Positions 1 through 24,200 of a stretch of DNA of 40,711 nucleotides are shown piece by piece. A program made the translations under genes and the position numbers. The DNA is taken from NCBI GenBank assembly GCA_008636045.1, contig SNRW01000021.1, positions 1-40,711 of the forward strand. Reading direction: 5' to 3'. This DNA is from Streblomastix strix. Taxonomy: Eukaryota. The notes beneath the pieces are model-generated. The model did not search any database. It saw only the letters and a list, made by a program, of their open reading frames with translations, and had not been told where the DNA came from. How positions within the stretch are numbered: position 1 is the stretch's first letter; every line of letters starts with the position of its first letter.

Positions 1-2299
1 TGGATTAATGGATCAATTTAATGCACAACAAGGATTTATAGCATGTGATTTTGAAACACTGAATGATTAATATATTGAGAAAATAACAGATTAACCAGCA
101 CTTCAATCAAATTTATCTAGATTAACATTTGCATAATACAGAAGTGATCCCGAATTAAGACAAATCATATGAATTAGTTAAGAGATGTTATACCCTATTC
201 GATGAATTATCCGATGATTATTAGGAGTAATTATAAAATTATGGATTACCACCCAATTCATCATTTGTTCATCTATGGCTTGCATAAGCATTTGAGTCAG
301 CAGAATAGATATATTAGGGTATGAAGTATGACGATGAAAATATTCCTTTTGACAAATGTGTTAAAGTACTTGGATGGAATAGTTCAAGATTTGATATTGC
401 TCTGTTATGGGATGCATTAGACTGTGAACTTTGGTCAATGAGTGCACCTATTGGCAATCTCAATAATACTAAATCAATTACAGTAACACATAAGAAGTCA
501 CACATGAAACTATAATTCATTGATGCAGAGAATTTATTTGGACCAATGACATTAAAAGCTTGCGTTAAAGATTATGAAGATAAATCTGAGCATAAAGATG
601 TATTTCCTTATGAAATTATTAATTCATGCAATTGGAAGGATGTATTAGTGAAAGCAGAACCATTTGAATATGAAGATTTTAAATCATAGCTCAAAAGAGG
701 TTATTCTATATCAAAAGATGAATACGATTAATATTTGATTGACTTCAAGAGATTCACCAACAGGTTAGAACACCTCAAATACTATAACATTAATGACACA
801 GAGATTATGGTTAAACCATTAATGAACTTAATTGATACGTTTGAATAATTCAATATAAATGAACTAACTTATGATGAATAATCAAACAAAGTGATCTCAT
901 AAAATAATGAAAATGTCACTACACACGTATTTGCTCTTGATGGTAATAGTCTTTATCCAAGATCATATTCATCAGTCAAAAATGAAAATATACCTTGCAC
1001 TGATCATAGAATTTATATGGTATGCAGATCGAGATTTTATTCATTAAAACCATATGTAATAAAAAACTGTATAAATTAGAGAAAGGATATATTTATAGCA
1101 AAAGTCAAAGGCTACTTTCCTAAATCAGAGCACAATAACCTCCTTGCACTACCCCCTATATTTAGAAATATTGAGATTGAAAATAAGGAAGAAGTGATAG
1201 GTGAATATATATATACTCACAAGCTCAAAAACATTCACTTCCAATGACAAAGAAAGATAGAAAATTGACAACATTACTCGACACTAACGACTAATTTATG
1301 GTATTCAATAACTATTATCTTTGGCTACTCATAGATCTCGGCTTCATCATCACTGACTATAAGGCTATTGCAGTCTTTGAGAAAAATGCGGCATATGAAC
1401 CTTTCGTTAGGACAATGATGATTTTGAGAATATAAGCTATATTAGCAGGATCAACTAAAGAGAAATTCTATAAGCTTATAATTAATTCATCGTATGGATA
1501 TGACACATTAAATACAGAGAAATTTGGTAAAATAAAGATGCTAGATAAAGCTGGTACTTTCATCGCATAACATCATCCTAATCACATGGGTACTAAACGT
1601 ATTAGTGCTAACACATTTGCAGTTTAAATTAAGCCTAAAACAGCAAATTGCTTCATATCAATTCATTCGGGAGTCTTTACACTAGATAATGCAAAATATT
1701 GGTATCTCAATTATATATACTACTTCATGTATAAGTGCTTAGACGGCGAACGATTTCATTTTGTTCTTGCAGATACTGATTCAATATATATATCAACAGC
1801 AAGGGACAAAGATAAATATTGTCAATAATAATTTGAGTCAATAGTAACAGATAAGAAATTCTATGACTAACATGTGTACTAATATTTGCCAAATCATAAT
1901 AAAGACATCTATGACTATAAAAAGAAACTTGGATTTGGTTTTGAAAATGAATGATATGTAATTACATCATTAGGACCTAAGTGCTATTCATTGATTGTAC
2001 ACAAATGGAACAAAGAAAAATAATAATTTGAATTTATTCCAAAAATTTCATCTAAAGGAATCAGTAAAACATAAAAAATAACTCATAAGGATTATATCAA
2101 TTTAATTAATAAAGATATAGTGAAAAAAGGCATTAATCGAACACTAAAAATATTTGATAATGTTATTTGCAGCATTCAGGTTGAAAAGTATGCACTAAAA
2201 GGATACAATAATAGATCAATACTATTTAGGAATTAATGTTATTGTCCTTATATTAAAGGGTTGACAGCCAAAAATTATCAAATCAAAGAATATTAATGA
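1..2299 (+). pseudogene. Protein-primed family B DNA polymerase (pPolB), copy 1, 5' partial
   Basis: With TAR=Gln: ExoI IACDFETL (~38-61), ExoII VLGWNSSRFD (~366), ExoIII YYNINDT (~780), ALDGNSLYP (~935), KLIINSSYG (~1472), LADTDSIY (~1770). Frameshift at the ATAT run ~1210 and an in-frame TGA at ~1952; ends at TGA 2297-2299. Confidence 0.93.
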
Positions 2300-2327
2300 A
2301 ATATTATTATTTATTATTTAATCTAAA

Positions 2328-2400
2328 ATGGAAACTATATAACAATATTTAATTCAAATTGCGACTAGCAATAAAAAGAAAAAATTATAATAACTAATAA
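2328..2400 (+). pseudogene. Truncated start of the viral ORF that follows pPolB (METIQQYLIQIATSN...)
   Basis: Same position after polB, same upstream TTTAATCTAAAATG and a similar N-terminus to the ORF starting at 18364 (-). Confidence 0.55.
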
Positions 2401-2403
2401 TTT

Positions 2404-2824
2404 TCACTCATCCTCTACAACATAATCATCTAACTAATTCATGAAGTCATACAGAAATAATCTTGCATTTTCCAATGTCATTGTTTCATTAAATGTTGGT
2501 TATTTTCTTAGTTTTATTTTCTTCATATTATCTTCATTTCATTTCTCTTCTTATGCGCCATTCAGCTATCTCTTATTTTATGCTTTTTCTATATCTTTTG
2601 CAATAGGAATTGTAAATATTTCTTCTCCTTCATCATCTGTAGTGTCAGGAATTTCACTTAATTTACCATTCCAAAATGCTGCATAGCCTACTTATATCAA
2701 TTTCATCATTTAAGCTTTTCTTTATTCAGCCTGCCTTGCAATGAAATATTGGTTGTATGCTTATTTTATTGCTTCACTCAATTTCTTATATATAGCTAGT
2801 GATTTAGCATCTTCTCCAACAAAT
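2404..2824 (-). pseudogene. 3' half of an unknown viral gene split by a transposon insertion
   Basis: FVGEDAKSLAIYKKLSEAIKQAYNQYF...LDDYVVEDE* with one internal TGA at 2539-2541. Joins in frame to 6784-7536 when 2825-6783 is removed. Confidence 0.75.
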
Positions 2825-2990
2825 GGGTCTTTCCATACGAAAATGACAAGAAAAATTCAAATATGTATAAGCAATCTTAAAAATATATTAGTGTTCATGT
2901 TCTCTAACTCCAAAATTGTAATTATTGCTTAAACATTGAGATAAAAAATTTAGATACCATTTTAAAAATGAATCAAATTTATGAAAAAAG
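2825..2990 (+). repeat. Left terminal inverted repeat
   Basis: Reverse complement of ~6610-6775. By hand alignment 51 of the first 60 nt are identical, and similarity continues to ...TTTTAAAAATGAATCAAATTTATG. Confidence 0.88.
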
Positions 2991-3482
2991 TTTTTAAATA
3001 TTTATTTTCTTTGAATAATATTTATTTTTCTAGTATATTATTTTAAATTCAAATATATAAGTAAATTCCTCCAAATATCACATTTACCCAATGAAACAAT
3101 GTTTTTCTAAAACATTCATCAGCATTTACACTACGTTCTATATAAATATAAATTTTCTATTTTATGTTTTTTTAAAAATTATAATGGTATCGTATTTGAA
3201 TTATAAATATAATTTTTACAATATAAGAAATAAGCATTCCATTGTTCATTTTTTTCTTTATAAAATTTACATTTTATCTATCTATATTAGTAGAAATATA
3301 AAATTTATTAAAATATATATATATATATATTATTTAATTAAACAAGTTGGTTTGTGCAGTCTAAATATGATAATTTTTTCATCTTAGAAATTTCTCTTGA
3401 CATTCAATAATTATTATTGTTATTTATAAAAAATAAATTTACTTTTATTTTTAAATTAGTTTTAATAAAACATTTTTATTAA

Positions 3483-4620
3483 TTCAAGTAGAATTTCCAA
3501 CGAAATCCAGTTGTTGTTGCATCAAGCATTATTGAAGTCTGCTGAAATGTGGATTAATATTTGGCTACAGCGATTGAAGCTATATTTCAATATCTTGCAA
3601 TATAGGTGAATGGACAATATTTTATTTATTTTTTTGAATATTTACAAAAATATTTTGTATATTAATTAGGATAAAATAGATGAAACAGTTATTGATCATT
3701 TATTCAAATCGGTAAGACTCATTATTGCACTTTAAAAATGGAGAAGAGCTCAAGAATATTATATATTATTTTATTCTTTTAATATTATATTATGTATTCA
3801 TTTATTATTCAGATTGAAAGAGAGAAAAGAAACAGGGAATAAACTAAGAGAGAAATGGAGAAGGAGAAAGAATAGGTAAAGAAAGGAATTGAAAATTCTA
3901 TACAGGTTCAGTGAAATGCAGGTAATCATATAATGATTATAAATATCTGATATTATATATTCAATATTTTAATTTTATATAAGGATTCACATTCTAACAT
4001 TCATCATTTGCTGGAGAAAATGCAGATGAAGTTGATGAAGCTGAGTTTGGAATTGAGGATAATGAGATTGATGTGAATAATAATGAAAATCAATAGAAAG
4101 ATATAGATAATAATAACACAGAAGCAAGTCAATCTTCATCATCATCTAAATAATCTCTGCTTGAATTTCAGAAACAATCATATTCATTGATTGAATGCAT
4201 CGCTGCATTTCGAGCTATTTCATTCTTGCTTCATGTTATGATATTTGATGAAAGATAGAAAAAAAGGAGAATAAAATACAATAATAAGAAATTGGAGAAG
4301 GATAAGGGGAAATTGAAATTTATTTCTTACTTATAAGCCGTTCGAGTTCGTATTAAACTAATTCTTTTTCCATTTCTTCTTTATCTATAAGAACATCAGA
4401 ATTTTTTAATTGTGCTGTAATCTTTCCTTTCATTGACTTGAAAGGAGAAACTGATGAAGGTTCAGTTTCATCTGATATTATTCAAGCTTAAAGAATAATA
4501 TCTACGATTTCAAAATTAATATATATCTTAAAATTGTCTACTTTTAGTTTTTATACCTTATTATTTAACTTTTCTACATCATATTCTATAATTGTTTGTG
4601 ATAAACTGTTTGGTACTTCA
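3483..4620 (+). pseudogene. Captured host-type gene fragment with retained introns, unknown product
   Basis: Frame is preserved across GT-AG introns 3606-3669, 3712-3812 and 3922-3983 (…ATAIEAIFQYLAIQ/DKIDETVIDHLFKS/IEREKR…/GFTFQHSSFAGENADEVDEAEFG…). Two internal TGA; no start codon identified. Confidence 0.65.
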
Positions 4621-5079
4621 ACGAGTAGGAAGTCCATGAGTCCATGAAACGAGTTGATCCCTAACGATTGCAAATTATGTTTCAGAAGATTGGCATAGTT
4701 ACCAAAGATGGAACCAGAGATAGAGTCTACATCCGACTTCCTATGCTACGGTTCGAAGTAGTTCAGTTTGAATGTAAATTCGCCGGACTTGAAATAGGGA
4801 CCACCATCTTACTACAACTAAAAGTTGTATACAGAAATGAACTCTGGTCGTTTCAAGATGCTTTCTAAGCTCTACAGAATTACTTATGAGGTTTGGCCCA
4901 ATGCACGAGACAGTACTGTATAAATTCTCTTAGTAATTCAAAGCAAACCACCAAAATATACCACTAAAGCCAAATAATATACAGGAGATCTGTCGAAAAA
5001 CTAAAACAAACCAAATCCTATAACTAATTAAGTTAAAAATTCTCCTTGAAGTCTCAAACCATGACCGCTTCACCAATCT

Positions 5080-6160
5080 TTAATTCCTTTTTTATGTTGA
5101 TTAAATTTATTTTTAAAAGTTTTTTCTCTTTGTTCATGCTTCTCTACTTCTCTATGAAGATTTTATTCATCCTATGATAATTGTTCTATTTTTTTATTTT
5201 TAATTTTTCTTCTTTAATTTTAATTTATCAACAAAATATTTCCAAGAACACAAGTCAGTTCTTCTAGTAGGATACACAACATTCTTAGTGATTTGGTAGA
5301 AGAACGATCTTGATATCGAGAGAGAAAGGGAAACAGCTGATTCAAAATTGTATACATTCTATTTTTTATGTAATAACATATTCTTTTCTATATAAATAAT
5401 AAGAAAAAACCTGTGAATTTTGTGGTTCATAGATTGTTGAATGAAGGAAGTTGATCAAATTGTCCTTATTGAATCTGTTGCAGCTGTTTATTTGTCTCAT
5501 TTTTCATTATATATTCAATAACATTTTAGTTTTTCTTAATTTTCAATTCCGTCATTGTTTTTTCTTTATAATTATCATCATTTTTTTAATCAATGAATGA
5601 TAATCTATTTTTTCTTTCCTATAATTTTTTATCACTTAAATTTTTTTTTTTTTCTATTTCAATAATTTGATTTAATGCTATTTATGAGTTAATTTGAGGA
5701 GATCTTGAAGAAGATTCTGGAGAAAATGAGGATGACTTGACTAGACTTGTTCTTTCCGTAATGATAGGTGTTCTTTCTTCATCTTTGTTAAATATTTTTC
5801 TAGATTGCTCAAATTCTTCTTTGTAAATTTCAGCAAACGAATTATCTTCAAGTTCTGCTTTTTATCTTCTTCTTTTTTTTGCTTTTAATTGTTTTTTTAA
5901 ATACTTACTTTATCCATATTAAATATTTTCAATAATTTTCTATTTTAATAATTAAATTTCTTAATTTTTTGCATTCTCGTCATGCAGCTAATGATGATAG
6001 TATGTTTGCTGCTATTGGTTCTAATGAATTTGTGTGAATTCTATTTGAAATTATATATATTTAAATTTTATAATATTTATATTTGAATATTTATTTAATA
6101 GTATAACTAACCTTATATAATAATCTTTGAATCAATATCTATGTACTCTTTATTGAATAA
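5080..6160 (-). pseudogene. Captured host-type low-complexity/coiled-coil gene fragment
   Basis: Minus frame AELEDNSFAEIYKEEFEQSRKIFNKDEERTPIITERTSLVKSSSFSPESSSRSP, with a probable intron at ~6042-6111. Frameshifted. Confidence 0.5.
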
Positions 6161-6609
6161 AATTATAAAAAAGCAATTTTTTCTATAAAAATTTTTAATT
6201 ATTCAATAAAAATTATTATTTATTCATAGATTTTGTTTATTATGTTAAATAAGTTAAATTTAAAAGAAAAAAATGAAGCTTAATATTGTTGCAAGGTCTA
6301 ACGCTGTGATTGCAACTAATTCATTAATATTTTTTCGAAGTTCTTTTGTATTGATTGGCTTATTAGTAATCATCCCTTTTTGGCTGTTCAGTACTATGAG
6401 GATGTTATTGGATAATCAACTTATTATTTCAAATCAACAAATCTAAACTATGTATAAAAGATTGCTCGAAAAGATGTTTTTAATCCCTAATCTAAACATA
6501 ATTCCAAAACTTATTCTTTGATTAAAATATTTGAAAATTGGTTATTTGATATATTTAGTGAAATTTTATCTTTTATAATTTTATTATTTGGATATAGAAT
6601 TGCTTCCGT

Positions 6610-6775
6610 ATCTTTTAACATAAATTTGATTCATTTTTAAAATAGTATCAAAATTTTTGATCGATATTTAAGCAATAATTGCAATTATGGAATAAGATAA
6701 CAGTTTTACTAAAATTATTTTAAGATTGTATATACCCATTTGAACTTTTCTTGTCGTTATCGTATGGACAGAACC
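6610..6775 (-). repeat. Right terminal inverted repeat
   Basis: Reverse complement of 2825-2990. Confidence 0.88.
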
Positions 6776-6783
6776 AAAGAAAT

Positions 6784-7536
6784 GGCTTTAATACGATTTA
6801 TTATAATATTGTGATAACTTTGGTGCAAACAATACCTTTCAAAATTCTCCCTCCAATAACAGAATATACTTAAGCAGCAGTATAACCACGATTTTTCAAG
6901 AATGGTGACAAATCGTATTTTATATAATGTCTATATCCATTTGCAGGCTTATCTTCTTCTTTCCATGCTTTATAACTTTACCAAGCTAAGTCTTCTTTAG
7001 TTTGATTTTCACTATAATATTTAGTTATTCTTTCATGTTCAATAGGAATTGTAATTATAAGACTATCAGCTACTTGAATAAATCCATTCTTATCATATAT
7101 AACAAACTCTGGAAATTTATCTCCTTTAATATCTTCAAATGTTCCTTTTCAATCCAGATATTTTCCTTTTTTATGTGATTTCCATTCGTCAAATGATGGT
7201 TAACTTGACCACATTTTCTTGAATTGAATATCTATATTTTTACTAATCAAATCCATTAATGGAGCACTTGCTTACTATCTTGATTAACATTAATATATTT
7301 TTCGCCTATCTCTTGTTAAATAATCAATTGTTTAATAATCTTCTTTTGCTTCCATCTCCTTTTATTACTATGCTGTCCTTAAAAATTTTTGATTATACTT
7401 ATTATTTGGTTATATTAACACACTATATGTATAATAATTGTTTTTTTTATTGTTTCTGTCCTCTACGAGAGGGATAACCTAATTTATCTGCTACATATGG
7501 TTGTTAATATGAACTTTATTAAGTTTGTTCTTCCAT
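6784..7536 (-). pseudogene. 5' half of the split unknown viral gene
   Basis: ATG 7536 MEEQTQQSSYQQPYVADKLGYPSRRG...EDIKGDKFPEFVIYDKNG...VLKP, with frameshifts and an internal TGA. Divergent from the ATPase. Confidence 0.72.
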
Positions 7537-7568
7537 TTAGTTTAAGCAAAAAAATTGATATCAACTAC

Positions 7569-8385
7569 ATGTCAATCATTAGTTTCAACTATAAATAAAT
7601 GCCTAATCATTCGGTAACGCAATATGTAAATGAATTACTAGATAGTTAAGTCACTAATAGACATGAGATATAAAGTACATTTTAGAAGAAAATTAACTTT
7701 ACGTATAATTCTATTAACTTATTTATTAGATAAAGAGGAAGTGGTAAGTCACATAAAGTATTTATAGAATTAATCAAATTGAGTATAGATTAAGAACTGT
7801 TATACATTACTTATTTATGTTACTGATACCAATAATGATTAAACATATAAGAAAATGAGTGTTTTAATCAACATTCCAACAAAGATTGTCACTTATGGTG
7901 AAATTTATTCTCTACTTAATGATTTAAAAGAAGTTAAAGCAGTTTATGATACAGTAATTGTGAAATATCTAATAAATTAGCATATATAAGATTCAAAATA
8001 GCAAATTCTTTCTACTGTTGGAGCATAAAATTTTAAAATGAAATATCCTCATATTTTAGTTTTTTTTGATAATGCAATGTCAGTGTTTAGAAATAAGTAT
8101 TTATCATTATTCAGAAAGATATTCAAGAAAAGATAGCCAAGAATCACTTGGTTTCTATGCTTATAAGATATAATTGGTTTTGATGCAAGTACAAAAGTAA
8201 ATATAGATACAATATATTTTTTCAGTAGATTCAATAGATAGAAATTTAACTTATTTTATTATTAATCTTCTTAACCATTTGAGAAAGATAAAGTATGGGA
8301 ATAATATTTAAATTTAACAAAGAGATAGGCTTTAATAGTATAATACAGTAATGACGGTACAAAAATAAAGATATTTGATTCATGA
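7569..8385 (+). CDS. A32/FtsK-HerA-like genome packaging ATPase (probably decayed)
   Basis: Walker A LFIRQRGSGKS (first Gly mutated), Walker B HILVFFDNAM (DD>DN), and RQPRITWFLCLQD with the conserved Q encoded by TAA (8164-8166). Apparent frameshift ~7790. Confidence 0.85.
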
Positions 8386-8449
8386 AATTTCATCAATTGA
8401 AAAAAATTTCTTATAATTTAATACACTAATTAATTTATCAAATTATTCA

Positions 8450-9409
8450 TTAACACTTATGGTATCGGTATGAATGCTACCAAATCTGTTGTTAGTCTAA
8501 AGGCTGTCTAATTTTTCATTATTTGTGTGTCACTTTCTCAGAGAGATTACATCATTGAGTTTTATAATACAAAATCTTTTGACACTAAATATCTTTTTTA
8601 ATTATTATATAGTCGTTTAATTCATCAATTCCTTATTTAATACAAGAAACTATTTGAACTCATCAATTGTATCAAATGTTATTAATTCAGATGAATACTT
8701 CTCAAATATTTTCAATTATGGTCGATAATTGTTCAATTTATTAACTATCTTCTATTTTGAGTCAAATATTACTCGACTCAATTTATTTGAAATAAATTCA
8801 TTCTTTTCAAAACACTAAATAGATTTCAAGTATAAATTATATATTATTTTAATCAATTAACTCACCATAAATATTTATCAACCAAAATTATGCGCATCTA
8901 TCATGATTTAATTGACGAAAGTGTTTCTAAGTTCACTATTCATCACATATACCTACAAACTAATCATTATCTTAATCTTCTTATCCAAATAGTGAATGTT
9001 AATAAAGATCTTAACCAACTAAAAACTTATTAGTTCTACAAAATACAAATATTATTTCTTTATTATTTATTGAAATGGCAAATTCTACAGGTAATAGAAA
9101 TTAGTTAGCCCCTTCATCTGTTTGTGTAGTTGAATTTTAAGGTAATATCATCCGATTTCTGTTAAATTATGAGATCATTTTATATTCCAAAAATAAAAAA
9201 ATTTCAATCATTGAGCTGTCCTTATCTTTAAAGATAAACATCACCAATGCGTATTAAATTTGCTACAAATTCAAACATTGAATATATATTTTTTACTTAT
9301 TTTTTCTTAAAGTCTATATTAAAATCTTAAATTATTTGTTTTATTAAATATAATAAATTTGTAGTTATGTTTATGGCTGCATAAATAATTCAAATATTGA
9401 TTTATCCAT
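8450..9409 (-). pseudogene. Decayed unknown viral ORF downstream of the MCP
   Basis: ATG at 9409 in the same TTTAATCTTAAATG context as another viral gene; patchy coding-like frames; no recognisable motif. Confidence 0.4.
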
Positions 9410-9477
9410 TTAAGATTAAATAAAAAAATAAAATATTAATTACTTTATTTGATAAATCAAAAAATAAAATTAATTAT

Positions 9478-11210
9478 TCATCCTTCAATCTATCTAATCA
9501 CCTCATCATATGTGTTATTTACATCACTAACACATGAACCTCCATTAGAAGGTCCAAACAACCAGAATGTATCTTGTATTGAGCACAAGATTGGAGCAGG
9601 TTGCCTTTCAACCATTAGATCAACATTATTGTAACAATCTATTTCACCCTGATAAACTACTGCTCCTCATAACTCTACTGACATATTTTAATTTTAAGTA
9701 TCTAATCCATCAAATGTTAGTGCACCATTACTATTATGTTTGCATTATAGTGCGATCATGAATGAGGTCAGATCAGTGTGAATATTCAATCTCCTTGAAG
9801 CCATGTTTCTTGATGTTTTCAAAGCATCTTCGAATTCATCAATTGCTTGGAATGACAGATCCAAGATACTTGCATTCAATTACGTTTAGAAGAATTATTA
9901 ATCTAGTGTATTCATTGGCGTATCAGGGAAATTTCATCCGCAAGTAGTAACTTACATATTATGATAGCATGGATTCTCAGAACAAGTTGTTGCTCTAGCA
10001 TCTTTAGGAAATAGCAAGCATAAGTCAGTAACATGAGATAATGGAATATTTTATTAAGTTCTTATTCCTGTTGACATAGTACTTTTTGGGAATGACCATG
10101 CTTCAACTCTCTATGAAGGTACAACAAATGGTCTATTAGCATAGAATTCACGAACTCTTTATAAGCAGTCATCAGTTATCTTATAGCCACTCATATTAGC
10201 TGCTGCTTCAGTTACAACGTAATTCTTTATTGATTATGTCACTGGACTAATGCAGTACATCAAATTCTTCATTCCATTATTTGTTATTTTTTTAATACTT
10301 ATTTTTTTAATTAAATCTGCAGTACATTCCATTTGAGTGAATTATTTAATATATTGATTTCCTAAACTCCAATTTTTAAAGAGTTGATCAATATTCTTCA
10401 ATTTATCAGGTCCGCTAGCCATAAGATCAGTCTTAATCATAGTGTAGTATTTAGCCATGCTGAAAATTAGATTAACTTATGCAAATACAAATGCATTGGG
10501 ATTAATTTTAAATTTAATATTCAAATCACCAAATAGTGAATTAGGATAGTCAGTAAACCTACTAAGTAACAGTATATCATCTAAAGGAATTGATAATCTA
10601 AATCTAATTGGCATAGTTTATAGAATAGAAACTTAATCTTTAATAGGTTCTTCTATCTCTTATTGTAATATAAGTTTCACAAACTGATTTATCAAACTTA
10701 TGTATATTTTCATAAAATGAATGAATATGTTTTCAATTATTTTTTTCACTTTTTGGCTTAATAGTATCATAGATAAATTATTCGATAGTTGAATCAATGT
10801 ACAATGTTCCATCAAAGTTTCTTCCTCTATGATAAATACAGTATTCTCTTAAAACTTAACTAGCTGATTTTAATCTAATGAATAATATAGTTCCAATTTT
10901 ATAAGACCCTTCAAATCCTTCAAATTTGTTATCAAATAATATATTTGCAGCAAGTTCTAATGAAATGAATGAATTTTGAATTTATGTTACATCATGATCA
11001 GTGTCAGATAAACTAATTAAAATTACCTTATCAAATAGTGCAATCATCTATGACTCAGGTTTAATTGTTTTGATTGAATAATTGCGTTCTCCATCATTTC
11101 TAAATGCATCAACGAAATTAATTTTTAATGTTGCTTCGACTGTTCAGAGTTATTGCAAATGCATTGACTTATTGAGAAAGCGGTTCATATATTATTTGAA
11201 GCAAAAATAT
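9478..11210 (-). pseudogene. Probable major capsid protein (double jelly-roll) of the Polinton-like virus
   Basis: ~570-codon intronless beta-rich ORF (TDHDVTQIQNSFISLEL...LKSASQVLREYCIYHRGR...PILCSIQDTFWLF...IEG*) inside the ATPase/fibre module. The call rests on size, position and recalled resemblance to metamonad Maverick capsids. Frameshifts present; start approximate. Confidence 0.65.
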
Positions 11211-11252
11211 AATAATCTTGTGTAGTATGTTAAACTTTGAAACGAATTATTT

Positions 11253-11677
11253 TCAAAAATATTCCTCACCAACTTCTTGAATAATGTATGGAGAACTTGT
11301 GTTAAATTGTGATCCATTTACATTTCAGTTTACAGAATTGCAAAATGAGTTCCTATAGTTCTGTTTATATTTCTTGAGATATTCGGATGAAGTCTTACGT
11401 ATCTATTATTTTGAATTGAGTATCTTACTCCAGGTTCATCAATGAAATTCCCTACATTATTTCTAAAATTTGTCAAGTTCATCAATCTGTCTTAACCATT
11501 ATTTGCATATATTGCATCTGAATAACTTGACGCAGCTTATAAGACTTTACTTACTATACGTGCAGCAAGGGCTTCGATAAATGGTTTAAAGGGCATATAT
11601 ATGTGTTAATTAGCCCAGTTAACTCCTTTTCTATATTTTTGTGCAATCTATTTGATTTTATGAAAGATTCCAGCCAT
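11253..11677 (-). CDS. Small viral protein with N-terminal amphipathic basic helix (pVI-like candidate)
   Basis: MAGIFHKIKQIAQKYRKGVNWANQHIYMPFKPFIEALAARIVSKVLQAASS, immediately upstream of the MCP. 3' end uncertain (probable frameshift). Confidence 0.6.
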
Positions 11678-11725
11678 TTTTATTGATGAAAATTAAGTAT
11701 CTTTAGATGCTGATTCGTATTAAAT

Positions 11726-13897
11726 TCATATAAAGAAACTTCCAATAATACAATAATTAACAAACTTATCAGCTTTTAATTCTAATGATATATGAATATA
11801 CCAGCGAACAGGGTTATCTGTATCACCAACCGTGAGATAGGCGAAAACAATATCTTAAATAGGATCAGTGTTGAAATAATATAAAATCATAACAGAAAAC
11901 AATAATGTTCTTTTTGGATCAATTGACTCACTCCTATAAAGTTCATACTATTTAGTTTCAATAATCCTTTTCTATCTCAAATACATATTGAACATGACTA
12001 AATTATTAACAGTATCATCAATAATATAATTCTTAAATTCATTTAAGTCATATGGAGATTAAGCTGATGCAAGTAATTATTCTCTTGATACTTCTGTTAC
12101 TATATATTATAGAAATACCGGTGTTGAAATTGGAACTGAAAGAAGGGTATCATATTACATAATAAAACTATCTATATGAGAAATTGGTTGACTGTTATTA
12201 TTAATATTATTATTTTACTATTCAGCAGGATCAATTAAATAACTTCCCCTAAAGTCACATAAACCCATAGGAAAGTAGCTAAATCCTTAATTCACAATAA
12301 TATCCAGTATGTCATTTTCATTAATCTATTTCATACCAGTTAATGATATATATGAGGCACTTTAAATATCTGCAATTGATCTTACTCCTCCTCCTGCACA
12401 AACAACACTATTGTTATCATATATTTGAACCATTTTTCTAACTGAATGAAAAGTAGTATTAAACGTCTTTTAACCACTAATACTTTGATAATAATCTGTA
12501 TCAACAAAATTTTTATTTTTTTGCTGAAGTTAATGTGTTTCCATCAATTGATATTTCTGTAATAGCATTACATCCTCCAGTTGCTGTTCCAAGAGTTGAG
12601 ATAACATTACTCATTTCTGGTAGTTCTGTATATAATACTTTTTAAGTCAGTTCCATCCCACCAAAAATCACTAACTTCCTTATTAGCGTTATTTAAATTA
12701 TCTACAGTTATTAATTTTGCTACATTTTCCTAATCTTACATCCAATCATTCAATTCATCTAAATTTGAGAAAACATATGCTTTTGACTTTCCAATAGCAA
12801 TATCTCTAACATCTTATAATTATGAGTGTATTATTAATGAACTCACTAACATATCTCCTCCACCTGCAAGAAGAATAGATGCTTCATTTTTACTCAATTT
12901 TGATATGCTTGGACCACTAATTATCTTGAATTATTTTGATCCTGTTATTGTTTGAGCAGAAGTTAAATCAACATAATTCGATAATTCTGCAGCATTAGCT
13001 TTCAGTAATAATATAGCATCATCTTCCTATTTAGAATATGAATCAATTAGTTCTGTTTTATCAGTTTTCAATAGTTAGAGACTATCATCCTCAGGTTTGG
13101 AATAAGTGTCAGTTTTATCAACTTTCAAGAGAAAGAGTGCATCCAACTACTCTTTGTTATAAGATTCCGGTGCATAATTTATAATAATGATTTGTTAATT
13201 AATGTTCTGAACTTATTCAAATAAATCAACTTTAATATATCTACTATTCCCAAATAATGTTTTATCATGAATTTAATTAACATCGGTATCAAGTGCTTCA
13301 CTTTGTGCTATTTATTCAAAAATAAACAACTCAACAGCATATTAAATTTTATTTAGAACTGTTAATAATCCTTTCGACACTGCTTACATCACTCTTGAAG
13401 ATATCTCGTTTAAGTCTAAAATAGATGTTATTTCTCTTACTTTCTACACACATAAATTATATGTATCTCTTAATAGATTAACTTTATTTTCATCAAATGC
13501 GTGAATATTTACACTTCCAGTATTGATTTCAGTTAATGTTATAATACCATCATTCATGAATCTAATGCAGCATGTACTAAAATCTTCATTCAGTTGAACT
13601 AATTATTCATTAATATCAAATATATATACAACAAAACGAATGAGTTAAGATTCAGATAAAATAAAATGAGCTTATTCTTTTAACATATGTTCATCCTCAC
13701 TAATTATATCCAATAATTATTTACAAATTGATGAATCTGCAGTTAATTCATTTTCGATTATTGAGCTTCTTCTTATTCTGCTGGACTGTTATGGAGAATC
13801 AATAGATGTTTAATAATTTTTTTTAAAATGGTGAACATTCTTCTATAATTGTAGGGATTGACGTCTATGATGATCTTGGAGATAGAATTTACGCCAT
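11726..13897 (-). pseudogene. Fibre/tail-fibre-like viral protein
   Basis: Three YxKxExDxLxLLKxDK-type repeats (~12995-13160) and two modules YVDLTSAQTITGSKQF...ILLAGGG and FVDTDYYQSISGQKTF...VVCAGGG, typical of phage fibre shafts. Frameshifts present. Confidence 0.72.
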
Positions 13898-13931
13898 TTT
13901 GTCAGAATAAAAAATTATGTAACACATATTT

Positions 13932-14132
13932 TCAATTAAATATAGATAAAATGTCTTTAGACTGGCATCTTTGATGCAATTGTTCACAGTGATCTTTTTT
14001 ATAAATATCTCTTTCTTAACCATTTATATGTTCATTTATTATATCAAATGCATTGACTATCAAAAACAGATTAGCTATCTCAACTAACGTTATAATTATT
14101 AATGATGTACTAATTATGATTTCAAATATCAT
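13932..14132 (-). CDS. Small (66 aa) viral protein with N-terminal hydrophobic segment
   Basis: MIFEIIISTSLIIITLVEIANLFLIVNAF...SIFN*; intact frame from ATG to TGA. Confidence 0.5.
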
Positions 14133-14149
14133 TTTCAATTAAATAAAAA

Positions 14150-14478
14150 AATAATTATATGTCAATTATTCTTCTGTATGATCTTTTATTCTATGTCAGT
14201 TTATAAGTATTCTAACATAAAACTCATATCATCTTCTTTAAAAATTATGATCAGATAATAATTTCATTAACTATTTTTACGCAATATTATTTTTATTCTA
14301 AATTATGCTTTCTTTTGTGTATATCTTTTCTTCGTTGCTAACTATTGTTTAATTATTGCTTCCTTTCTATCATCATCATTGAAGTATTTATTTAATCTTC
14401 CAACTGATCTCTTTTCAATTAATTAGTCAACATATTCACTTTGAACTTCATTGAATTAATTTCGATTATTGTTTCCAT
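14150..14478 (-). pseudogene. Small basic putative DNA-binding viral protein
   Basis: METIIE...KRSVGRLNKYFNDDDRE resembles a degenerate AT-hook (KRxxGRPxKY). Frameshifted; 3' end approximate. Confidence 0.45.
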
Positions 14479-14506
14479 TTCAATAATTATAATAATAATA
14501 ATAAAT

Positions 14507-15836
14507 TCACAATTTTAATCTAAATTATTGTTTATATTCATTTTCTAACTGATTTATATTTTTTTCCACTAATTTTGTGAAGTATATTGGTAATATTATA
14601 GTTTATAATTCGATGTGTGGATTCAATAATTCAACTTTAACGTAACCATTAACACATTGCATAAATATGCCAATATTATTAAAATTATGTCTAATTTTAT
14701 CAAATAATGTTTCATTTTTGATATATCAATGAATAATAGTAAAAAATTTACTTTTTGATAATTGTTTAGACAGAATTATTTTTATAATTTTCTTATATCA
14801 TTTAATATTTCCTACTAACGAAAGATGTGCTATCCTTCTATTCGCTTATCATTTTGAGCTTACATTGGACTATTCTTATTTTAGTAAGCAAAATGTGGTG
14901 TCCGATTATATAAATCAATAGATTAATACATAAATTATTCAATAGCAAGCTCGTTAATATTATTACCAAATTCATTTCTAATTATTCGAATAATCCTGAC
15001 AATTACTCTATTATGATCAGTGAATAAATTATCTGTGAAGAATTGGTTTATCTTATTTTGTTTTTAGAAATCATTTAGTAATTTTGATGCAAAAGATTTC
15101 TCACTATCTCCTCTGATATCATCAATCCAAACAAATGATATAAGCTATTTTTAGAAAATTAAGAATTAGAATTTATGATTTAGATGATACTGATATTATT
15201 ATCAAATAATTAGTGTTCACATTAATAGCGAATAGATATTGATTTATTTCATATTTCTTTTTCATTATGAATACTTAATCTATATCCCAAGAATTGTTGT
15301 TGGGCGAGAAATATGGCTATTCAAATTTCGCTAGTCTTTTGAATCAATAGTCATGAGGTTCTAGTGTATTAGTTTAAAGATAAATATCTAATTAGATTTT
15401 TGGTTTAATGAGATGATGTATAATAGTAATTTGCTTTACGTATGATATCATACTTTGATTTGAAAAAGAATTGATTTTAAGTTAATTATTGTAATAAATT
15501 ATTATTCCTATATTCCTTATTTAATTTCTTTGTCTTATGTTAAGCAAATCTACTTTGTCGCTGCTCTAAAGAGTAAATTTTCTATGGATATTTCTTGGAA
15601 TACTACAAAATATATTATTCATACTATTTGCTAAGATATTAGTCAACAAAATTAATGTGTTATGCTATTTAATCCAATACTTTGAACTGTTTTTAATTGA
15701 ACATATGATTCAGAATATTGTTATAAAATGATTGTTTCGTGTAAATATTTTCTTATTAAAGCATTGCATTTATTTTTATATTTGGATCTATATCATTATC
15801 TAAACTGAATTATTCCAAAACACTGACTATATCCAT
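14507..15836 (-). pseudogene. Retroviral-type (rve) integrase of Maverick/Polinton type
   Basis: PYFSPNNNSWDIDQVF, YLFAINVNTNYL, IRGDSEKSF, HNRVIVRIIRIIR and YNRTPH. Ends at TGA 14507; start uncertain. Confidence 0.85.
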
Positions 15837-16400: not shown

Positions 16401-16417
16401 TAAAAACGCCAAACAAT

Positions 16418-17051
16418 TCAATCAATCAAATTGTAGTATCGTTTGAATTTATTGATTTATATAGCTATTTTATGATTATTACCTTCATAAGCATAAACAA
16501 ATAATGCTCCATTTTACTTTTATACATTACTACTTAATATTCAATAATTAAAACCATTATAGAAGTAAAATTTATCTGTTTCCTAACCATTGTAATAAAA
16601 ATCATAATCATAAAAATTATGATGATTACCATAATCATCAATGGTAATAGCTTCCTGAAGGAGTTCTTTTACAAAGTCTTATATAATTTTTTTCTATGTT
16701 AACGTTTATTTTTCTAATTAGAACTATTATCCACTCAGCATAAATTTTATATATTATTATCAGTCTTAATTTAATTTAAAAGATCTTTTTATTTATTATT
16801 AGTTGGATTATTATTTTCAACAAACTATTTTGCAACTTATCTATGTAGTAAATATGCCTAATTATTTAAACGTACTATTAAATATATCCATTGCTGTTTT
16901 TACAAAATCTAGGAATAAATTCATCTTTTTTTCTTCTGATAATCCATAATTTTTATGTTGAAATCTAAAAATTTGTATATGATTTTAGTTTAACGAATTG
17001 AGTCTTTGGCGTTTATGTCATCTACGAGGTTGATATTTCTGTTTATGCCAT
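16418..17051 (-). pseudogene. HNH homing-type endonuclease, paralogue 2 (degenerate)
   Basis: NGYI...LLHRQVAKQFVENNNP...DLLNQIKTDNNIQNLC*VDNSSNQKN. Catalytic His lost, plus TGA and frameshifts. Confidence 0.8.
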
Positions 17052-17174
17052 TTACAATCAGGATAAAAAATAAAAAATAATTATATCTTATTTCTTCTAC
17101 TATTCATTTGCTTAATTTTGATTCGCTTCCTGATGACTCAATTTATTAAGTTATTCAATTTTCAATTGGATTAA

Positions 17175-17762
17175 TCAGAGATTATAATGCCTTTTAAATT
17201 TAATAATATAAATATTTCTTTTATCATAATTTGAATGATATGCACATACAAATAATGATCAATTTCGCTTTTTTTCATTAATATGAAATACTTTCTATTT
17301 TAAGCTATAAAATTAATAAAATTAATCTGTATCTTAACTATTAGAATAGAATTCAAACTAATGTAATCCGTAATCACTAATAGTAATAGTGTCTTCAAGA
17401 ATTTCATCAACATATTCATAAATTATGTCTTTAATATGTTTCGTTTTATTTTTACAATTATCACTTGTTGAAATATACCTTAAATTGCTTAAGCTGTTAT
17501 TTAACTGATTTCGTTCGTTATGATCAATTTATGTCTTATTAATCGGATTATCATTTTCAACAAATTGTTCCGCAATAATTTTACGAAGATCATACATTTA
17601 TCCACCAACATTTCCACGCAAATACCCACACTTATTCTTACTGAATTTAAGAATAAACTCATATTCTCTTCTTTTGATTATCCATTGTTCTTAAGTTGAG
17701 ATCTCAAATTCACTATTAGCCATAAGTGTGACGAATTCTGTTTCTGATTATGTTTCTGACAT
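17175..17762 (-). CDS. HNH homing-type endonuclease (HNH_3/I-HmuI-like), paralogue 1
   Basis: KCGYLRGNVGG...KIIAEQFVENDNPINKTQIDHNERNQLNNSLSNLRYISTSDNCKN; the ATG-TGA span is 196 codons. Confidence 0.85.
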
Positions 17763-17810
17763 TTTCAAATAAGATAAAAATTAAAAATAGTATCTTGTTT
17801 CCTTAATTAA

Positions 17811-17955
17811 TCATTTGCATAATTTCGATTCACAAGCGTATTTGATTATTGCTTCATAGATAGCTTTCCAAATAGCATGCCAATCAATATATAATGATTC
17901 AAATGCTTCAATTGCTAAGACTATATTTGCAGTAATTAGTTCAAAGAGAGTCATT
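17811..17955 (-). CDS. Small unknown viral ORF
   Basis: MTLFELITANIVLAIEAFESLYIDWHAIWKAIYEAIIKYACESKLCK*, with AAAATG start context. Confidence 0.4.
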
Positions 17956-17979: not shown

Positions 17980-18364
17980 TCAATGCTCAAATCTCATCAA
18001 TTAATTCTTATAAACCTTCTATATATTCATCTTTTAACGTTCTATATCTATCAATTGTATTCTACAATCAGTTTTCTGTAGTAGTTTCAACATTCAACCA
18101 ATGTGTCTCTTGTAACAGTCTTTGTTTCAATAACAATCGCATTTTTATTGAACCATTATTCACTTAATTAAAAGTCAGTTCAACAAATTAGATTGTAATA
18201 GTTTTATTAAATTATTAATTTGACTTAACTTTTGAGTTCGTTTTTCATTTACATTAATTCAGTTAATTTTCAAATTATTACAGTTACGATTATATTTCCA
18301 TTAGCTACTTGATCTATTTAGCGTTAGAAGCAATTTCATTTAACTAATCTAATTGATTGTCCAT
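17980..18364 (-). pseudogene. Unknown viral ORF directly downstream of pPolB
   Basis: MDNQLDQLNEIASNAKQIKVANG...; homologous start at 2328 (+). Internal TGA; 3' end approximate. Confidence 0.5.
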
Positions 18365-18421
18365 TTTAGATTAAATAGAAATAATATTAATATTCAATAA
18401 TAATCTTTAATTGTATGATTT

Positions 18422-20965
18422 TCAGTTTGACTAATCTTTGAATGCGTAATCCTTAGCTAATAATCCTTTAATATTAGGACAGCAACATTAATTCCTTAAT
18501 ACTTTTGATTTATTATTGAATCCAGTTAATGTGAACTTTTCTACTTGAATGCTACTCATAACATTATCGTTTATTTTTGATTTTCCATTTGTATTTTTTT
18601 TCATTATATCTTTATTAATTACATTAACGTAATTATTATGAGATATTTATTAAGATTTGCTAATTCCTTTAGATATAATTTTTGGTTTAAATTCATATCA
18701 ATATTTTTCTTTGTTCCATTTGTGTACAATCACTGAATATCACTTAGGTACTAGTGAAGCAAATTGATATCCTACTTTTTTAACTCCAAATCCAAGTTTC
18801 TTTTTATAGTCATAGATGTCTTTACTAGGATCAGGTAAATATTAGTATATATGTTAGTCATAGAACTGTTTATCTGTTACTATTAATTCAAATTATTAAT
18901 GATTGTCTTTAGTAGGATTTTCCGCTATTGCAATATAAATTGAATCAGTTTCTGCAAGAACAAAATGAATTCGTTTGCAGTCTAGACATTTATACATGAA
19001 GTAGTATATATAATTGAGATATCAATATTTCGCATTATCTAATATAAAGATTTCTGATTGAATTGATGTAAAATAAGTAGCATATTTAGGTTTTATTTAT
19101 GCTGCAAATGTATTAGCACTAATATATCTTTTACCATTGTGATTAGGATGAAGCTATTCAATGAAAGTATCAGCTTTATCTAATAACTTTATCTTACCAA
19201 ATTTCAGTACTTAATATATCATATATATGATGCATTAATTATTAATTTATAGAAGTTTTCTTTAGACGATCCCGCAAATAAAGCTTATATTCTTAAGTTC
19301 ATCGTTATCCTAACAAAAGGCTCATATGCAGTATTTTTCTCAAAGACTGCAACAGCTTTGTAATCAGTAATGATGAAACCTAGATCAATAAGAAGCCAAA
19401 GATGATAGTTATTTAACACCGTAAACTAACTATTAGTATCAAGTAACGTTGTAAGTTTTCTATCTTTCTTAGTCATTGATAGTGAATGATTTTATGCAAA
19501 TGAATACATATATTCACCTATCACCCTTTCCTAGTTTTCTATCTCGATATTTTTAAGGATTGTTGGTAATATAAGTAGGTTATTATATTCTGACTTAGGA
19601 AAATAACCTTTGACTTTTACAACAAATAAATCCTTCAGTTAATCTATACAATTTTTAATTACATATGGTTTTTCTGAATAAAATCTTGATCATCCAGCCA
19701 TATAAATTCTGTGATCGATGTAAGGAATATTTTCATTTTTGACGGATGAATATGAACTCGGATAGAGACTATTACCATCATGGACAAATACATGAGTAGC
19801 AACATTTTGATTATCTCATGAGATCACTTTATTTGATTATTCATTATAAGATAATTCATTTCTATACGTTTCACCTGCTATATTCTCTATGAAATGCTGC
19901 TGCAAGACCATCTATAATACATTTTCGAAGTAATTTATATATTCTATCATCACTAATTGTCATTAGTGAATTATGTTTAATTGCATACTATATTATCTTG
20001 ATATGTAATGATGCTATTTTCGGATCTCTATTTGCATGCGCTATACAACATGAAACACATGCTGGCAAACAGTTATCTTTTGTGTGAGGAAGTTCATTAT
20101 TTTATCTATCTAAGCTAGGAGGGCTATCTTAAGTAAATTTAGTACTACAAATTGAAAATATTGATGATTCAAATAACTTTTATAGTGATCATAGTCATCA
20201 GCTGTTACATTTTTATTTGTTTGTCTACCTGCATTATAATGCTATTATTATAATTGTAATACTTATTTTTCCTGTATTATTCTGTTAGTACAAAAGGTTT
20301 CGCTTAAGGATTTGGATTAGTATAATCAGCTTTAATTTCAAAATCTGAATAATATGATTATTTTTATTCATTAATATCAACATAAAATTAAAAAGGACAA
20401 TTAGTTGAATAATGTTTCGTTACATATGCGCATGAAGCTATTGAAATATAGTTTAAGACTTCAATAATAAATTATTCGAATGTATCAATTAAATTCTTTA
20501 ATGGTAAAACCATAATTTCAGAATCATTAATATTTTAATATTTGAGAAATTCTAATCTGTTGGTGACTTTCTTAAAATCAATCAAATATTAATTATATTC
20601 ATCTTTTGCGATAGAATGAACTCTTTTGAGCTATAATTTAAAATCTTCATATTCAAATGGATCTGTTTTCATTAATATTTCGTTCCAATTCTTTGAGTTA
20701 ATAATTTCATAAGGAAATACATCTTTATGTTCAGATTTATCACCATAATCCTTTACACATGCTTTTAATGTCATTAATCCAAATAATTTCTCTGCATCAA
20801 TAAATTATAACTTCATATGAGATTTCTTCAGTGTTAATGTAATTGATTTAGTATTATTGAGATCACCAATAGGTACACTCATTGTCCAGAGTTCACAATC
20901 TATTGCATCCCATAACAGAGCAATATCAAATCTTGAACTATTCCACCTCAGTACTTTAATTTTTC
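18422..20965 (-). pseudogene. Protein-primed family B DNA polymerase (pPolB), copy 2, 5'-truncated, with internal HNH-like module
   Basis: Collinear with copy 1: WNSSRFD, DVFPYE, VHDGNSLYPS, KLIINASY and LAETDSIY. It has ~600 bp (19860-20460) that copy 1 lacks, and several frameshifts and stops. Confidence 0.93.
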
Positions 20966-21285: not shown

Positions 21286-24200
21286 TCATTGTTTATGATT
21301 AATTTTGCGACGACTCTAATACAGAACTTTCATGATCTTCTAACGAATATCGGGGAAGAATTCATGACTTAAACTGCATTATAAATAATTATAAAAAAAA
21401 TAAAAAAATTGTAAAAATATAATAAATATAAATAAATAAACAAACTATGAAACAAAGATCACAAAAAATATACAGCATGCAAAAGAAAGCAATGTCGAGA
21501 CGTAGAATACGAACGACGTAAATGGAATAATAAATTGCATTGTTGTAAAAATTGCCATGAGTGCAAAAAACAATATGAGAGATATAATTACCAAGGTAAT
21601 GAACAGCACATTATGCCATCGAGATTTGTGTAGTGCCATTACAGCTACAACAAGCATAATCTCTATGGATAGTACAGATCCAACATCCATCATACTATCA
21701 GATCGTCCGTTAGCATAGGTTTGCCCATAATTCATCATCAACCGAGTTATAAATATTATTATCAATCCTTGAACTAATCCAAAAAACATCCACTTTAGCA
21801 TCGATCTAACAGAAAATGAGCGGCAATCTTTGTATGTCCGATAAACAGATGGGAAGTTTTAAAGTACAAATGTTGGAAAGTCGCGATCATTTATGCTGAT
21901 GATAAATGGAGGAGCTAGTGTGAAAAGTAACCCAAATAACGTGCAGAACCAAGAATTTAATACAATTTGTGTAGAAAGAAGGTTATAAACAAATTGGTAT
22001 ATAATTGTAGGTACAGTGAATACAACATTCTTGTATAATGAGTATTTGATCAATCCCGCGAGTCTGTACAGATTAATATGACCATGAACTGTTAATCTTC
22101 GTAAATGCTTGAACTAAAGGATAGAGAAATCTGAAGCCTGTGAAATGTATTTAAAAGAAAATATATTAAAAAAACTAAATATATAATAGAAATTATCGCT
22201 TATAACCTATGAGGCAAGTGCACCTTCATGACCTCTGATACCAACACCAACATCCGCTTCTAGAATCATAGATACGTCATTTGCGCCGTCCCCCACAGCA
22301 AGTGATTTAACTTTAGATTTAATCAGTTTCTTTTTCTTTGATTTGCTCTCTGAAAAAGATATGTGCATTCCATACTTCTTCACAAGGCGAAGAAGCATTG
22401 CTTTCTACATTGGTGCCATACGACAGCATATTACACTCTCGCATCTCTAGGCAATCATAAGAAATAGTGCTTTTAATTCAAATTTGCCATTCAGGATTAA
22501 ATTTGCTACAAAGCCATCTATAACAAGACTAAACTTTGACGTACTGTAAGATTTTGCATAGTTTTCTTTTCTATCAATAATTTGCATTTCTTTTTCTTAA
22601 TTGGCCTTTTAACCATCATAAACTATAAAATCGCTATTCTCTGGTATTTTAATACTGTATTCTGATTTAAGTTCAGCATTAACATCATTTTAGTTAATCT
22701 TAAATTACTCTTCTAAGATTTCTCTCATCTGTTTAGAAAGTTATTCTTAATGCTCAAGTAATATTTCAAACTTTTACAATATTTTGTTCTATCGCATTTC
22801 TTATTAATCAGGTTGAACAATTCTGGAATTGATTATATGTTTAGAAAGTTCGATGGATGATGATGCTTTGCTGATTATTCCACAGGACCTTCCAATGTTA
22901 ATTGCAGTGTCCAATTTATCTCCAGTCAGCATCCACAGTGATATTCCACACTATTTTAATAAATTAAAAAGAATATACAAAAATTAATGATAAAATATTG
23001 ATAAAAATTTATATGGTTGAATATTAATAATTTGTCTTTAATATTAATATGAATTTACTGTACAAACTTTTCTAAAGAATTGCAGGGTATCTTTGCACCC
23101 TTCCTGAAGTACATCTTCAATACCAGTGCATCCAACAAGAGTCAACTCTTTTTCCAACAATTCAAATGCTTATTCTAATTTAGACTCTCGATCTTTCATT
23201 GCAACTTCAGCATCTTTATATTATAACTCCCATTGTTAGTATTCAGACCTTGAAATGAGCTTCGTACATATAAGAAGTGTACGAAGTCCAACTTTGGCAA
23301 ATTCATCAACAGCTGAACTGATCTTATTAATATTTTGATGATTTTATTATTATGATGTATCTTGTTGGTTATTATTGCATAGTGGAAGAAGAACTGAATC
23401 TGCACCTTTTGTATAAAGACGGATTGAACCATCAGGAAGTTGGACAAGAACACTCATCCTCTGTCGCTCTGAAGTAAATGGAAGAATTGCAAGAAGATTG
23501 AAGCTGAATTTAGTATTGCTATTTGTAATTGATGTTGGTGTCTTATTATCTTCTTTCCTAACCTTCCTTATATTTTAGCTCTCTGTTTTATTCTGATCAG
23601 ATTAAAGTTCTATAAACATTTGTCTTCCCTTTTTTCCAGCATAAAATATTCCTTTATCACTAAGTGAGTTCAGTAATGCTTCTTCATCTGGAGATGTACT
23701 CATAATTTGGTAAGGAGAAATTATCTTATTAATTTATTATTTTGAGTCAGTATCTGGTGAAGTTTATTATTTGTTGTTATCATCTGATGCATTTTTATTC
23801 TTGTATTTTTCTCCATATTTTGTCTTCTTTATAATAAACATTAGAAACCTGAATAGTAAATCATCTACATTAATATCAATTACACTATATCCTTTTTCTT
23901 TTTCTTCTGAATCATCCTATTTCTAATTTTCTTATTCTTTATGTACTGTAGCTTCATGGCACAACAAGAGACAGTTGAAGAAGTGGAATATATTCGATTG
24001 CTCATTAACTCCTTAATTTGGTTCACCATCATTTGTTTCTTTTTCTTTATCGCTTTCACTGATATTCAAATTATCATTAAGATCTAAAATAGATTAGTTT
24101 CTATTTTCATTTTCATTTTGATATTATGGTTAATCTTTGAGCAAATTAATATATTGATTTGAAAGAGAATCAAAGTTCATAGTTTCTTGTTTGGGTGATG

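Follow-up and report, generated by a model that had tools for sequence, protein, structure and literature searches.

The window analyzed here is a 40,711-nucleotide stretch of Streblomastix strix DNA (assembly GCA_008636045.1, contig SNRW01000021.1), which reads in NCBI code 6 and in which a DNA transposon bounded by terminal inverted repeats (TIRs) lies within a gene of an element that we take, from its sequence, to be Maverick/Polinton-like. All named protein relatives that were found belong to S. strix; the contig sets used below are labeled X1, X2, and X3, and the sequencing runs that hold this DNA are termite-gut metagenomes. Alignment of the repeats places the left TIR at 2825 to 2990 (plus strand) and the right TIR at 6612 to 6775 (minus strand), with 135 identical positions over 166/164 bases; blastn aligns the pair at 81% identity over 167 (E 1e-39). 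The left TIR, which is the 3′ end relative to the transposase, opens with GG at 2825 and starts GGG, and the right TIR, the 5′ end, closes with CC at 6775 and starts GGT on the minus strand. A 23-base tip pattern occurs at two places in the window, which are the two TIR tips, and gave 0 matches in 100 shuffles. An initial annotation, made from the sequence alone, had correctly recognized diverged TIRs of ~165 bp starting with GG in a transposon inserted into an endogenous virus gene of a protist with a non-standard code; its count of 51 identical bases among the first 60 becomes 49/60 counted from the GG, or 50/60 one base out.

The insertion of a TIR transposon into the viral gene is real. 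The two flanks, 7536 to 6780 and 2824 to 2404, are the halves of one minus-strand multicopy gene with homologs of 392 aa, and they align to residues 30 to 238 and 254 to 392 of these proteins. Homolog alignment also locates the lesions of the gene: the 5′ half (6780 to 7536) has a frameshift of its own near 6830 and a TGA at 7151, and the 3′ half (2404 to 2824) has a TGA at 2541. These two stop codons mark the viral gene as decayed even when the insertion is left aside. The search gave 27 S. strix homologs of the interrupted gene, of which 11 lack one anchor and 16 span the insertion site, and all 16 are uninterrupted, so that the empty site the annotation had suggested seeking in other copies of the gene was indeed found. 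The left junction is crossed with 0 differences by one 390-base contig of X1, which may be the window's own source and not an independent witness.

The target-site duplication (TSD) is 4 bp, AAAT on the left (2821 to 2824) and AAAG on the right (6776 to 6779), the right copy matching the left at three of four bases, and not 8 bp as first proposed. Homolog spacing defines both copies, joined on the left by empty-site contigs. Specifically, 18 residues separate GRIxKG from FIGGD in 16/16 site-spanning homologs, whereas the same anchors in the window are separated by 59 bases where 54 are needed, the surplus being 4 duplicated bases plus 1 frameshift base near 6830. From the conserved YY to FVG the window has 34 bases where 30 are needed; TSDs of 2 bp and 5 bp were also tried and do not fit this spacing. 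The contigs agree, with one X1 contig being one base shorter at 6830, X3 record 15 having 55 letters between 2823 and 6835, and an X2 joint leading from 2825 to 6788 with 7 letters between. The flanking 8-mers CAACAAAT and AAAGAAAT are present as the initial annotation reported, but they are not the TSD; they are alike at 6/8, which ~1.4% of random local pairs attain. The in-frame join that had seemed to confirm them (VLKP to FVGED) is a coincidence, because removing 8 bases takes away 4 too many, which minus the 1 extra base makes 3 and so keeps a frame. The true frame is one base off: the window frame that matches the homologs, one base from the upstream frame, has a mean score of 44.9 vs. 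−5.4 for the frame first read, which gives 17 residues between the anchors and not 18.

Within the element, 5062 to 4314 on the minus strand matches the S. strix protein model EZS28_007468 (P0001) with 67% identity over 257 aa (tblastn, E 1e-102). This decayed DDE-type transposase core (4314 to 5062) retains DFKEN at 5053, DGGP-FKS at 4808, and FEPQHRKSDVD at 4757, and is damaged by TGA codons at 4940, at 4484, and right before DFKEN, by a frameshift near 5040, and by a 16-codon deletion. Judged by homology and motifs, the DDE-type remnant is the element's own gene, now broken. The interior, which had been described as having no clear transposase, thus does encode one, and the minus-strand member of the "at least two" host-like pieces counted on opposite strands is this gene. 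P0001 shares ELKxGE..DFKEN, LSxVLNHxS, WSDG..FKS.E, and HGKxDVD with the Sola2 transposases of DFa-2 (Dictyostelium fasciculatum) and PPa-1 (Polysphondylium pallidum), as compared by eye with the supplement of PMC3627910, and the spacing of the motif blocks, likewise read by eye, is close. The adjoining minus-strand stretch, 5063 to 6450, likely holds N-terminal exons of the same transposase, their exact limits not being fixed: KELKIGEAVMV runs straight into DFKEN, and H..E..QR and FPFL..R..CxLxE stretches resemble, by eye, those upstream of DFKEN in DFa-2 and PPa-1. The Atlas clusters nearest to P0001 are eukaryotic DUF7869 (cosine 0.95 to 0.96), six structure rows against DUF7869/PF30715 models have template modeling scores by query of 0.74 to 0.90, and one cluster also carries DDE_Tnp_ISAZ013. 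The single-sequence fold of P0001 was poor (predicted local distance difference test, 38.9). Pfam gave nothing above cut-off in any interior frame and no family, IS1595 included, in the window's transposase piece at E ≤ 0.1, and P0001 has no relatives in JGI metagenome contigs or IMG/VR viral contigs. At 4811 to 4822 (minus strand), just before the second catalytic Asp, the window reads QLQQ where P0001 has KWWS, in part because TAG and TAA codons are read as Gln in code 6.

On these features, the element is likely a decayed, formerly autonomous, Sola2-like transposon, Sola having reportedly been defined by Bao et al. in 2009. Sola2 termini begin 5′-GRG; the left GGG fits this and the right GGT does not, and the DFa and PPa elements themselves start with GA or GT. 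The DFxEN, SDG..FK, and HGKxxxD motifs of Sola2 were recognized by eye in both the window and P0001, and the AAAT/AAAG duplication corresponds to the 4-bp AT-rich TSD of Sola2. The Sola2 elements DFa-1/2/3 and PPa-1/4/5 have AWWT TSDs, AAAT among them, and resemble the window element in this, in the transposase motif blocks, in termini that begin with G, and in the foreign coding DNA in the 3′ part (PMC3627910). They differ in carrying Fanzor1, whereas the window element carries a truncated fragment with introns, and unlike them the copy here is dead and its host is a code-6 metamonad (PMC3627910). Alternatively, the transposase could stem from a neighboring lineage with 4-bp TSDs, either Sola1-like or an unclassified DUF7869/PF30715 group, the rest of the history being as set out below. 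Atlas indeed gives DUF7869 and PF30715 with no Sola2 label, and Sola1 also makes 4-bp TSDs, but the motif blocks and their spacing follow DFa-2 and PPa-1 closely, ELKxGE before DFKEN included, and we consider such an origin quite improbable.

The initial annotation had instead called the element Pack-type and likened it to Pack-MULE and Merlin elements. Pack-MULE TSDs range from 8 to 11 bp, and the window element has a 4-bp TSD and its relative P0001 no MULE Pfam domain at E ≤ 1. Plant Pack-MULE/Pack-TYPE elements resemble it in holding, as it probably does, captured exon-intron DNA between long TIRs and differ from it in that it has a 4-bp TSD, its own non-MULE transposase remnant, one fragment, and no amplified family that we could see (PMC8903248). 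Pack-TYPE elements are moreover nonautonomous, with no transposase match over 250 bp, and a remnant of at least 750 bp would put the window element in the autonomous-derived class of packFinder (PMC8903248). Merlin elements have terminal GG, 8- to 9-bp TSDs, and a DDE_Tnp_IS1595 domain (PMC8101967), of which the terminal GG alone is present here. A nonautonomous family of Pack-MULE or Merlin type that makes 8-bp TSDs, carries several host pieces, and shuttles exons into viral DNA would account for the GG termini, the long TIRs, one real gene fragment, and the 6/8 likeness of the 8-mers, and oxymonads are reported to contain Merlin, S. strix having remnants of it (PMC8101967). It is contradicted by the empty-site spacing and by a 4-bp TSD on which two lines of data agree, by a join of 17 nonhomologous residues where 16/16 homologs have 18, by the transposase remnant of at least 750 bp, by a Pfam search of P0001 that gave neither a MULE nor an IS1595 domain at E ≤ 1, and by the lack of further TIR copies in the searches described below. 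We regard it as very improbable indeed.

On the plus strand, 3436 to 4318 is likely a captured gene fragment with exons at ~3491 to 3605, 3670 to 3753, 3813 to 3921, and 3984 to 4318, separated by three AT-rich introns. The stretch from 3491 to 4258 splices to a single frame with two TGA codons; the lesions comprise these premature stops at 3543 and ~3912 and paired 1-base indels at 4260 and 4292, and the fragment ends mid-exon at 4318. The S. strix protein model EZS28_054338 (P0036) matches three of the exons at 67, 74, and 81% identity and has Gly where the cargo has its second stop; its alignment puts the end of exon B at 3753, and the donor of the second intron in the window reads GA. In a full HMMER search P0036 was the sole relative of the cargo among 1.84 billion representatives, and a word-index search with cargo exon D gave no match. 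Two X1 contigs resemble the donor. The first, at depth 38, matches 3436 to 3631 with 27 differences, does not have the 3543 stop, and opens with 307 letters for which 2806 to 4400 offers no match. The second, at depth 56, matches 4019 to 4318 with 26 differences and 5 gaps, continues into 261 letters unlike the element, and agrees with P0036 at 11/12 testable changed residues. An X2 loose end carries the cargo frame on beyond 4318. These donor-like contigs have 2 to 3 times the depth of the window's own, depth not being a copy number. From the 40 of 103 differences listed, 24/33 changed codons are nonsynonymous, as expected for neutral decay of the window copy. The cargo alignment extends to 4318 and the transposase alignment to 4314, so that the two share no more than 5 bases. 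High depth at 4251 to 4293 was discarded as a sign of cargo copy number; it stems from an unrelated contig that aligns there over 43 bases with 8 mismatches.

From this comparison, the fragment was likely captured from the host, so that of the several captured pieces first envisaged one probably stands, namely the plus-strand gene piece, and the others do not. One intron-containing captured piece would be unusual for this lineage and yet a known kind of event. The same Sola-like insertion could also be read with the plus-strand gene as a resident second gene, comparable to Fanzor in DFa/PPa, or as a piece of another repeat, an internal deletion at 4314 to 4318 having removed the 3′ ends with which the two genes faced each other. 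The 3′ part of DFa/PPa Sola2 elements is variable and does contain a second gene (PMC3627910), the junction lies within ~10 codons of the P0001 stop, and the donor, for which S. strix alone gave relatives, belongs to no Pfam family and lies on a short contig, with donor-like contigs at 2 to 3 times window depth (again not a copy number). Such a history needs a second break to explain why the 307 letters before 3436 in the depth-38 contig have no counterpart in 2806 to 4400, and the Fanzor motif given in PMC3627910 was seen by eye in none of the four cargo exons. We judge a resident gene unlikely, though a serious possibility.

We favor, as the probable history, a broken Sola2-like TIR transposon in a decayed Polinton-like gene, flanked by a 4-bp TSD and holding one host fragment that was captured by template switching during DNA repair. 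The first step would have been cut-and-paste insertion of an autonomous copy at an AAAT site. Repair, from a host locus, of a break close to the last transposase codons would then have copied ~880 bp, and 4314 to 4318, where up to 5 bases are common to both matches, would be microhomology. The introns kept in the cargo indicate copying from genomic DNA and not via mRNA. Neutral decay of the element, its cargo, and their surroundings would have followed. The two TIRs have diverged by ~19% (~9% per arm if they were identical at the start) and the cargo from its donor by 9 to 14%, and this similarity suggests that insertion and capture were close in time. Capture by template switching has been described for single-copy animal Pack-TIRs, which are like the window element in their TIRs and low copy number and, if its fragment was indeed captured, in enclosing genomic DNA with a short microhomology at a breakpoint, and unlike it in host, here a protist, and in that most of the transposase is kept here (PMC8277862).

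Several points weigh against this history. None of the listed contigs spans the right junction; the right TSD copy reads AAAG, and a 3/4 likeness taken alone is weak, occurring in 9% of cases by chance. Assignment to Sola2 is based on a comparison of motifs by eye, the Atlas label DUF7869 cannot separate Sola1 from Sola2, Pfam finds nothing in P0001 at E ≤ 1, and the TIRs are ~165 bp here vs. 12 to 21 bp in DFa/PPa (PMC3627910). P0036 is an incomplete model, its contig having 701 bases, so the genomic context of the donor is unseen; it has no Pfam family above cut-off, and its gene could be borne by an element and not by the host. Low-depth (6 to 10) variant contigs also occur along the element.

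These variant contigs lie at 3105 to 3282, 3487 to 3575, 4833 to 5290, and 5409 to 5931, are 85 to 92% identical where listed, and may represent a second allele or haplotype or a sister copy. At 3105 to 3282, two contig depths sum to the depth of the neighboring contig. Other copies of the transposase are P0001 and contigs with 70 differences over 457 bases (85%) and, at 5409 to 5931, 69 differences over ~520. Searches of the window, the JGI metagenomes, and IMG/VR with the TIR pattern turned up nothing beyond the two known repeats; in this search, which was no genome-wide TIR census, a second element with both TIRs and TSD did not come to light, and no TIR loose end occurs among 12 of the 83 listed. 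The recurrence of TIRs with TSDs that the initial annotation expected was therefore not seen. Depth, which by the tool's own caveat is not a copy number, is 37 to 63 in the TIR bins, ~20 in the transposase core, and 560 to 15,700 in the viral flank bins; taken with the 16/16 empty homologs, these values do not suggest that the virus carried the insertion or its cargo along as it spread. A family that moves host exons into viral DNA, as first proposed, is likewise not apparent in one dead copy within one decayed viral copy. We consider it rather improbable that oxymonads have a long-TIR Sola2 family that takes up host DNA with its introns, keeps its transposase, and transposes with its cargo into Polinton-type proviruses.

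The Polinton-like assignment of the flanking element rests on sequence patterns, with family-B polymerase motifs at 378, 783, 939, 1472, and 1772, a Walker A motif at 7737, and an integrase-like tail at 14910, and on gene order, in that five stretches of the window, among them the two halves of the interrupted gene, match the S. strix model P0025 and follow one another as they do there. No Pfam, PHROG, or PDB match of note was found for the pPolB, ATPase, and integrase motifs, P0005, P0007, and P0025 have no Pfam match above cut-off, and the viral gene has no relatives in IMG/VR viral contigs. S. strix holds Maverick/Polinton-type endogenous viruses in the same code, with capsid genes (PMC10120064). 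The putative Polinton-like element here resembles these in its motifs for pPolB, Walker A, and an integrase tail, which read in code 6, and in the P0025 gene order, and differs in that this copy is decayed and interrupted (PMC10120064). Three stretches at 9619 to 12370 (minus strand) that match P0025 at 61 to 72% are candidate capsid genes. A second pPolB-like copy, at 18313 to 20959, is inverted and 79 to 86% identical to the first at 361 to 2379, so that two Polinton-like copies, ~21 kb in all, may lie back to back or one within the other. Related tandem stretches (63% identical) lie at 16414 to 17124 and 17163 to 17831, the second with a weak, below-cut-off HNH_3 match (E 0.0017). The virus-like region is adjoined at 21286 to 24546 (minus strand) by a host P4-type (phospholipid-translocating) ATPase gene (Pfam E 5e-42), and 34895 to 35081 is a tandem repeat of ~5 to 6 30-base units, probably coding.

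The element, its cargo, and the viral gene are all decayed, and no new mechanism, active family, or virus-borne transfer of host genes is shown. If the cargo-carrying family considered above were real, host exons would gain a way into a virus lineage abundant in this genome. At this locus an insertion nested in a Polinton-like provirus can be dated, and the way in which TAG and TAA decay is read in code 6 means that dead frames stay open and can mimic low-complexity host genes. We found neither Sola2 nor gene capture described for oxymonads in the literature covered (Repbase and subscription journals lying outside this coverage), and our findings extend Sola2-like transposons, and probably Pack-TIR-style capture as well, to an oxymonad.

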